From: Schmidtea polychroa
Lineage: Eukaryota
Assembly (NCBI GenBank): GCA_044892525.1
Contig: CM097885.1
Coordinates: forward strand, 154,938,001-155,002,000
Direction of reading: 5' to 3'
Length of the DNA stretch: 64,000 bases
The position numbers and the translations under genes were made by a program. Shown piece after piece: positions 53,590-54,978 of this stretch; the stretch's first letter is position 1; each line of letters opens with the position of its first letter. Below the pieces are notes generated by a model that worked only from the letters and a program-made list of their open reading frames with translations, was not told where the DNA came from and did not search any database.

Positions 53590-54978
53590 ATGGATAAGCG
53601 ACAACGAGAAGAATTCAATGAAATTGTTGAACAAGTCAGAAAGTCCACCACAATTCGAATACATGACCATGTGAAGTGTGGAGTATGCAAAAGCTTATTA
53701 AAAGAACCTCACCAAACCAGATGCGGATGTAGAATGTGCAAAGAATGTGTAGAGGAGATAATAAAGAAGGGACCACAATGGTGCCCAGTATGTAAAGAAA
53801 CCATGATAACAAGTTTGGGAGATACAAACGAAGATAAAGCAGCCGTGAAAGATATGTTAAATTCAAATTTAGGATGTAAAAACACCCCATGCAATTGGCG
53901 AGGAGTGATATGGGAAGTGAGGCAACATCTGGAGCAATGTGAGTATAAAATCAGTCAATGCAAACGTTGCCAGGAAGAGATTAAAGTCAATGAAGAAGCA
54001 GAACATCAAAGTCGATGCGAAGAAAGACTGGAGAAATGTGAGTATTGCGGAGAAACCGACACCTGGAAAAAACTAATCAGTCAACATCACAACATACAAG
54101 AGGAGAAAGTGTGCGCAGAATTCAGAGGAGAATGTCCCAACAAATGCGATAAACCCGGAGTAATAAAACTCGCTCAACATCTAAAAGAATGTGAAAGAAA
54201 AAATATAACGTGTGTGTTAGGAAAATGGGGATGTCAGAAACAATTACACCGAGGAGAATTACCCCAACATCTAGCAGAAAACGTATCAACACACGCGGAA
54301 ATATGGTCAACGATATTACAAGAAAACGAAAGGAAAACCGAACACCTAGAAAAGGAAATAATCTCGCTAAAAACGTTGGTAAAAGAATTATTGCAAGAGA
54401 AGGAAGCATTCGAAGAGGCAAGACTAAGCACAAAGATACAAACAGATCTAGTGGAAACTAGCAACATTATGGTGAAAGAACTACATCAAAAAGTAAGCGA
54501 ATTAAACCTCAACGAATTAATACCAACGGCTCCATACATATGGAAAATAGCGGGAGTAAAAGAGAAGATGCAGAGAGCGAGAAATGGAAAGGATACAACA
54601 CTACTAAGTCCAGCATTCTACTCATGGAAAAACGGGTATAAAATGAAAATGAAAGCATACCCCAATGGGGATGGAAGTGCATACGGAACGCATTTCTCAG
54701 TATTTTTCTTGATGTGCAAAGGGCTATACGACGAGTTAATAGAATGGCCATTCAAAGCAAAAATAGACCTCGCAATGATGAACTATCAAAGTATACATGA
54801 ACAGAGTTTCCATACAGCGGGAAACCTCGTATGTTACCAAAGGCCCTTGGAAGAAGAAGGATCAGCAACCGGAGCACCGAATTTCATCCTACAGCGGAAA
54901 GTAGAAGACATGACGAGAAACGACACTATATACATAAAAATAGCGGTGAGGCGAGACGGGAAGAGTAGGACTGAGTAG
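53590..54978 (+). CDS. TRAF: Full-length intronless TRAF-like protein (RING, TRAF Zn fingers, coiled coil, MATH/TRAF domain)
   Basis: CGVCKSLLKEPHQTRCGCRMCKEC..CPVC; HLEQCEY/HLKECE fingers; YIWKI..LSPAFYS..GYKMKMKAYPNGDGSAYGTHFSVFF..EWPF. Confidence 0.93.
   Translation: MDKRQREEFNEIVEQVRKSTTIRIHDHVKCGVCKSLLKEPHQTRCGCRMCKECVEEIIKKGPQWCPVCKETMITSLGDTNEDKAAVKDMLNSNLGCKNTPCNWRGVIWEVRQHLEQCEYKISQCKRCQEEIKVNEEAEHQSRCEERLEKCEYCGETDTWKKLISQHHNIQEEKVCAEFRGECPNKCDKPGVIKLAQHLKECERKNITCVLGKWGCQKQLHRGELPQHLAENVSTHAEIWSTILQENERKTEHLEKEIISLKTLVKELLQEKEAFEEARLSTKIQTDLVETSNIMVKELHQKVSELNLNELIPTAPYIWKIAGVKEKMQRARNGKDTTLLSPAFYSWKNGYKMKMKAYPNGDGSAYGTHFSVFFLMCKGLYDELIEWPFKAKIDLAMMNYQSIHEQSFHTAGNLVCYQRPLEEEGSATGAPNFILQRKVEDMTRNDTIYIKIAVRRDGKSRTE

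Follow-up and report, generated by a model that had tools for sequence, protein, structure and literature searches.

Burro/GYPSM1 elements are giant gypsy-like LTR elements of planarians, about 30 kb in length and flanked by multi-kilobase LTRs (PMC6431247). The cargo reported for these elements includes MATH_TRAF_C, BIR, Bcl-2-like, and ankyrin repeat sequences, and fusion-protein homology lies in frame between gag and protease (PMC6431247). In Burro1 the MATH domain is part of ORF1, whereas in Dugesia tigrina an accessory ORF located upstream carries it (PMC6431247). MATH/TRAF cargo in Burro elements is already published; the accessible portion of PMC6431247 is silent on copy numbers, selection, origin, and splice signals for the Burro MATH. 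BURRO1 is expressed in differentiated gut cells upon PIWI loss (PMC8532177).

An expansion of the TRAF family in planarians has also been reported and left unexplained (PMC6109357, PMC7586133, PMC8807557). In their accessible portions, none of these three papers links the expansion to Burro, PMC7586133 makes no mention of transposons alongside it, and PMC11410931 and PMC4558846 hold nothing further on such a link. Knock-down of host TRAF raises cell death in planarians (PMC7586133), and traf2-1 restrains infection-driven tissue loss (PMC4993586). Flatworm operon candidates have been described as same-strand genes less than 300 bp apart that are resolved by spliced-leader (SL) trans-splicing (PMC12582326). 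In the literature accessible to us, we found no account of a downstream, full-length Burro TRAF, of selection on it, of how much it contributes to the planarian TRAF count, or of spacer signals; Grohme 2018, Jurka 2007, and supplements may hold part of this.

The LTR element and its TRAF gene

The window, the whole 64-kb stretch of DNA analyzed here, contains an LTR element of 30,406 bp (31676-62081) with 4053-bp LTRs and a 4-bp target-site duplication, ATAG. A TRAF gene sits inside this element, which is laid out as follows.

31676..35728, plus strand: 5' LTR of 4053 bp, TG...CA, with the ATAG duplication outside both LTRs
36223..36702, plus strand: 5' accessory ORF of 159 aa, IAP-type RING, with a T-rich acceptor 2 nt before the ATG
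39052..52971, plus strand: gag-env-pol polyprotein region with capsid, zinc knuckles, Monjiviricetes-type fusion protein, protease, RT, RNase H, integrase, and ankyrin repeats
53141..53500, plus strand: accessory ORF of 119 aa, a homologue of which precedes TRAF in all three element lineages
53501..53589, plus strand: spacer of 89 nt with tandem TGTAAATA at +20 and +30, AATAAA at +34, and an acceptor-like TAG 2 nt before the TRAF ATG
53590..54978, plus strand: full-length TRAF with an all-Cys RING (30-68), five fingers (96-235), a predicted coiled coil to about 304, and MATH (316-453)
54979..55197, plus strand: spacer of 219 nt with TGTATATA at +16, an AATAAA cluster, and an acceptor-like CAG 6 nt before the next ATG
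55198..57766, plus strand: three accessory ORFs of 335, 233, and 208 aa, with no curated Pfam match and an acceptor-like YAG before each
58029..62081, plus strand: 3' LTR

The two LTRs are 99.6% identical. Only 12 substitutions and 3 gaps separate them, which marks the insertion as young. The polyprotein of this copy is interrupted by in-frame stops and frame changes, and the TRAF in the same copy is whole. The fusion-protein domain (PF24664, E = 5e-73) lies upstream of the protease, the enzymes follow in the order protease, RT, RNase H, and integrase, and the ankyrin repeats are matched by Ank_2 (E = 2e-17). A Pfam search of the window element's polyprotein found no internal MATH such as that of Burro1 ORF1. 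This layout, together with the closest named proteins, makes a planarian the likely host.

Several other sequences were recorded in the window. The 5' LTR contains a 252-aa ORF (34429-35187), and no ORF of that length is listed for the 3' LTR, which is set apart from the 5' LTR by small gaps. A consensus splice donor is located at 35485 in the 5' LTR, and a strong T-rich acceptor lies upstream of gag at 38472. The leader before gag (37295-37854) includes a 74-bp tandem repeat in the form of six overlapping copies of a 190-nt unit. A stretch at 35736-35752, 7 nt off the LTR end, is like a primer-binding site and presumably resembles that of tRNA-Pro; no tRNA gene was found in the 64-kb window itself. 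A remnant of a hAT transposase (DUF4371, Dimer_Tnp_hAT) is found at 16244-17894.

The TRAF ORF runs in a single frame of 462 aa from an ATG at 53590 to a TAG at 54978. Pfam places a C3HC4 RING at residues 30 to 68 (21.7 bits against a cutoff of 21) and MATH at residues 316 to 453 (PF21355 and PF22486, E = 8e-25), and five complete sets of zinc-finger ligands occupy residues 96 to 235. The AlphaFold2 model (mean pLDDT, 91.4) has a 73-residue helix at 232 to 304 and a MATH sandwich, placing a predicted coiled coil, which ends at about residue 304, ahead of the C-terminal MATH. When this model was searched with Foldseek, the top matches were the TRAF domains of TRAF2 (E = 2e-17), TRAF3, and TRAF1. 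The ORF, the Pfam domains, the ligand sets, and the modeled helix uphold the preliminary description of an intact RING-zinc finger-coiled coil-MATH protein. A word-index protein search returned no close relative of the window TRAF, with only 2 distant matches, and the same search with the Burro1-type TRAF returned none.

The RING ligands (C30, C33, C45, C47, C50, C53, C65, and C68) are all cysteines, and C47 aligns with the His of TRAF2/5/6 (CGCRMC versus CGHRFC). In the MATH groove, FHTAGNLV replaces the F-x-P-D..S motif of host and vertebrate TRAFs, and the groove motif of the Burro1-type TRAF differs again from both the window TRAF and the host genes. In the R-x-Y motif, the Tyr is retained and the Arg is changed to Lys; the serine run is replaced; we take the R-x-Y and serine-run residues to be the receptor-peptide groove of MATH. 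Because this groove has drifted, the element TRAF may not bind the targets of host TRAFs.

Copies, origin, and selection of element and host TRAFs

A 20-mer of the window TRAF matched 142 genomic places, and a control matched 0. Among the best 92 of 1858 candidates in a protein search of the genome, all were 92 to 100% identical to the query and 84 were free of stops. Flanks on both sides were common to all 30 TRAF loci returned. Of 100 listed 20-mer matches, 36 places fell outside the best-92 set, and each of the 36 lay in element DNA. Only 4 of these 36 retained the whole TRAF frame, and so the lower-ranked copies decay like dead insertions.

Two further lineages carry the gene. The TRAF of a sister lineage is 69% identical to the window TRAF, and 91 of its best 92 matches (of 1965 candidates) are stop-free. 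The Burro1-type TRAF has 474 aa, is 32% identical to the window TRAF, and yields 281 matches in the genome. Counting broken copies, the three lineages hold about 515 TRAF copies or more (142 in the window lineage, 281 in the Burro1-type lineage, and at least 92 in the sister lineage), and the slot of TRAF after pol is identical in all three. The gene is thus not confined to one copy, and the proposal that it was amplified with the element is borne out. The Burro1-type pol is 62% identical to that of the window across the last 2,026 residues, and an RT 20-mer matches 184 places spread over two lineages. In a Burro1-type element (L068:851-3594), a BIR-RING IAP gene directly follows TRAF. The Burro1-type polyprotein holds a second MATH, which has no RING and belongs to the same clade as the element TRAFs.

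Some copies are unusually arranged. A decayed piece of the element occurs in ten clustered copies at C1:152.8-153.5 Mb (L123-L132), likely segmental duplicates; nine of the ten are cut at one site inside TRAF, as is L133 elsewhere. Two pairs of TRAF copies, L011/L012 (identical) and C2:107.33/107.35 Mb, are 26.4 kb apart, as expected for tandem elements with a common LTR. A Burro1-type copy at C4:59.29-59.34 Mb (L061-L065) is split by a stretch of about 13 kb with many unrelated ORFs, which may be a Maverick-like insertion.

In a 34-row tree, built without the long or partial rows L072 and L038 and without the internal MATH, the element TRAFs form one clade (100/100) inside a planarian Cys-RING clade (98/96). 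The element clade stands beside two host groups, each with Dendrocoelum lacteum genes, and AU tests select neither as its sister group (p = 0.32 and 0.13). A quick 58-row tree agrees on the element TRAF clade, and library proteins P0004 and P0014 group within it. In a MATH-only tree, the Burro1-type internal MATH falls with the element group (92/92, not starred) and away from the intron-bearing host family. These results support the derivation of the gene from the host, as the preliminary description had proposed. Because the element TRAFs are one clade inside the planarian TRAFs, the gene was likely captured from the host TRAF family once, long ago, and the simplest reading is one ancient capture followed by internal duplication.

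Between the window TRAF and 29 other copies, dN/dS is 0.14 to 0.25. Compared with the sister-lineage TRAF, it is about 0.09, with synonymous sites near saturation and the proteins 69% identical. Changes common to more than one of 32 distinct copies comprise 117 synonymous and 59 nonsynonymous changes, against a site ratio of 3.9 nonsynonymous sites per synonymous site; the P value of this test is overstated, since the copies are related. The eight RING cysteines are invariant in 38 of 38 copies. These data demonstrate that the element TRAF is under purifying selection. The claim that a host-derived TRAF has been kept intact therefore holds, and at a dN/dS of 0.09 to 0.25 the gene is not decaying neutrally.

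Two other accounts of the origin were weighed. The TRAF could be a recently retro-captured host mRNA, a passenger that is intact merely through the youth of its copies, as its single exon and the 12 substitutions between the LTRs might suggest. This account is barely credible, however: the best host match is just 32% identical, the near-saturated synonymous sites accompany 69% protein identity to the sister lineage, host genes are single-exon too, and a dN/dS far below 1 both within and between lineages contradicts it. Codon bias is also that of the element, with A in the third position at a frequency of 0.48 in the element TRAF, 0.47 in pol, and 0.29 to 0.38 in nine host TRAFs. Alternatively, the direction could be reversed or undecided, with the single-exon Cys-RING host TRAFs descending from the element gene. 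Many host TRAF genes have no introns, and placing the element clade outside both host groups gives a tree that the AU test does not reject (p-AU = 0.32). We nevertheless consider a reversal very unlikely, as D. lacteum has orthologues in both host groups; since no host gene falls inside the element clade and host codon use carries no trace of the element's bias, transfer from host to element is the direction indicated.

The host complement was surveyed in the same genome. Among the best 150 of 1551 candidates in a MATH family search, 94 were element-type and 56 were not, by our own count from frame length and place. None of the 30 nonelement MATH loci tested (of the 56) shared DNA with the window element; ten of these loci, plus other host regions, were also compared by tblastn. 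Nine host genes have RING to MATH in a single open frame, and in some of these, a short exon or acceptor seems to lie upstream. About 45 other, short TRAF genes, mainly at C2 1-5, 26-32, and 105-124 Mb (L037-L060), make up a host tandem family in which an intron lies between a Cys RING exon and a MATH exon; many of its members are 85 to 95% alike.

The Cys at the usual His position of the RING, remarked on earlier, is present but not special. All nine single-frame host genes read C-G-C in the RING, and Cys is found in 5 of the 5 RING frames read in the tandem family (from 9 loci). In a 152-protein library sample, Cys occupies this position in 20 proteins and His in 74, and the named Cys-RING proteins are D. 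lacteum TRAF-2, -4, and -5 and three echinoderm TRAF3-like proteins. The argument from the lack of introns to a retro-captured mRNA is not supported, given nine single-frame host TRAFs and an element clade that lies apart from the intron-bearing family. Since host TRAFs have both a Cys RING and a single exon, neither feature marks the capture of a spliced mRNA.

The suggestion that element copies inflate the apparent TRAF family stands in part. With a host TRAF as the query, the top 25 of 91 scored matches comprised 5 host genes and 20 copies flanked by the element's neighbor genes, and so the inflation is real at the level of the genome. Element copies outnumber the host genes found; a true host tandem expansion coexists with them. 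The planarian TRAF expansion can thus be split into a host tandem expansion and about 500 element-borne copies of one ancient capture, a split that matters for gene counts, RNAi design, and expression readouts.

Spacer signals between the accessory genes

Accessory ORFs in the window (52972-57139 and 57767-57830) and at L068 and L070 are separated by AT-rich spacers of 56 to 219 nt (n = 12). The motif UGUAHAUR lies 14 to 20 nt past the stop codon in 10 of the 12 (shuffle mean, 0.12; maximum, 3), although it was defined on the same spacers as were scored, and these are not all independent. A YAG is located no more than 6 nt before the next ATG in 10 of the 12 spacers, and the other 2 have AAG (shuffle mean, 2.1; maximum, 8). 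As background, such a YAG precedes 108 of 533 and 116 of 619 other ATGs in the elements. In both the window and the Burro1-type lineage, 89 nt separate TRAF from the ORF before it, with AATAAA at +34; the DNA of the two lineages barely aligns. The TRAF acceptor is YAG in 12 of 12 and in 25 of 25 further loci, and the -3 base is only T or C in all 37.

This arrangement, in which the spacers pair a motif at a set place after the stop with a splice acceptor ahead of the next ATG, is new here. Because both signals recur at fixed places, the spacers suggest that the accessory genes are expressed as separate spliced mRNAs, and with them a means for a 30-kb retroelement to express many separate genes. 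The array shows the same-strand spacing of less than 300 bp and the acceptors used to recognize flatworm SL operon candidates. Complex retroviruses use cis-splicing from a donor in the LTR region, and cis-splicing from the consensus LTR donor at 35485 fits the spacer layout as well as trans-splicing does. Tentatively, Burro may be an operon of captured host-control genes. A long transcript would be cut by spliced-leader trans-splicing into TRAF, IAP, and other mRNAs, with a Pumilio-like or polyadenylation element after each stop; the element would supply most TRAF gene copies, and death signaling would be reset when PIWI silencing lapses.

Other readings of these sequences were rejected or set aside. 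A TATA box in the TATATA run before the TRAF ATG was rejected, as the distance from the run to that ATG is about 10 nt. A forkhead site in TGTAAATA is disfavored: all 10 plus-strand sites of the window element fall in spacers or just past the last ORF, most of them keep a constant spacing to the stop before them, and the variants are TGTATATA. Two poly(A) loose ends in run contigs were set aside, both being at A-rich places. Contigs of run X1, which is RNA only by guess, cover 30 of 30 bins of 52500-57900 and those of X6 cover 17, a coverage that shows neither expression nor splicing. Among 36 lower-ranked copies and 30 loci searched for spliced genomic copies, no break was found at the TRAF acceptor.

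Proposed function and comparison with known systems

The TRAF is a standing accessory gene of a Burro-type element, likely captured from the host. Its product probably, if by no means surely, works as an adaptor trimer and ubiquitin ligase, damping stress and death signaling in expressing cells. Its own spliced mRNA would be made via the acceptor just before the ATG, and the protein would trimerize through the coiled coil and feed the survival circuit of the host, TRAF-TAK1-p38/JNK. Ankyrin, Bcl-2-like, and IAP-type genes of the element would act alongside it, and the outcome would favor survival of element-expressing cells. The death-related cargo, the cell death that follows loss of host TRAF (PMC7586133), and the restraint of tissue loss by traf2-1 (PMC4993586) speak for such a role. 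In BURRO1 RNAi, the smedwi-2 phenotype was not rescued, which counts against a survival role and is no direct test of it (PMC8532177). The framing of the gene in TLR/NF-kB signaling, offered earlier, is doubtful. Flatworms are without TLR orthologues according to a review (PMC7958881), and p38/JNK and caspase readouts are for this reason better suited than NF-kB.

The drifted MATH groove leaves room for other roles. The protein may be a repurposed ubiquitin ligase serving the element, its altered groove recruiting a host restriction factor or an element protein rather than receptors. The retained RING and finger ligands, a groove that differs both from the host and between lineages, and the RING-less MATH of the same clade inside the Burro1-type polyprotein are all consistent with this. 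The entire TRAF architecture and length are retained, however, and the remaining cargo (IAP, ankyrin, and Bcl-2-like) indicates death signaling (PMC6431247), so that we regard such a ligase as unlikely, if worth keeping in view. A decoy or pro-death TRAF that poisons or redirects host TRAF trimers, possibly killing cells to release particles, appears more doubtful still. By analogy, it could be modeled on the megalocytivirus TRAFs, of which ISKNV ORF111L reportedly triggers apoptosis through caspase-8 (PMC3352826), and the element does encode a fusion protein. Against it, the iridovirus TRAFs are smaller, with 206 and 296 aa, the element TRAF keeps a full RING, and a host-inherited element would gain little by killing its own cells. 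The published idea that Burro tinkers with apoptosis becomes testable on one intact, selected gene.

Like published Burro elements, the window element is about 30 kb long, with multi-kilobase LTRs, a fusion protein before the protease, and ankyrin repeats. Unlike them, as described in the accessible literature, it carries a full RING-to-MATH TRAF as its own ORF downstream of pol, as does the Burro1-type element of this genome. The element TRAF shares its length class, domain order, and C-G-C RING with planarian host TRAFs (D. lacteum TRAF-2, -4, and -5 and genes of its own genome); the named planarian comparators include Smed-TRAF-2A/B (PMC7586133). It differs from the host TRAFs in being only 24 to 32% identical to them, with A-rich codons and an altered MATH groove, and in being multicopy and mobile.

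Vertebrate TRAF2/3/5, which give the top sequence and fold matches, likewise have a RING, zinc fingers, a coiled coil, and MATH. In contrast to these, the element TRAF has Cys for His at the fourth RING ligand, as do three echinoderm TRAF3-like proteins, is about 100 residues shorter, and has lost the serine-rich groove. The megalocytivirus TRAF (ISKNV ORF111L, PMC3352826) is also a captured TRAF with which a selfish genome acts on cell-death signaling of the host; it differs in belonging to a DNA virus, in being shorter, and in being reported as proapoptotic, and we infer that it represents an independent capture. Finally, as in flatworm SL operons (PMC12582326), the accessory genes lie on the same strand within 300 bp of one another, with an acceptor upstream of each downstream ATG, whereas this array lies inside an LTR retroelement, for which cis-splicing from an LTR donor would serve equally well.
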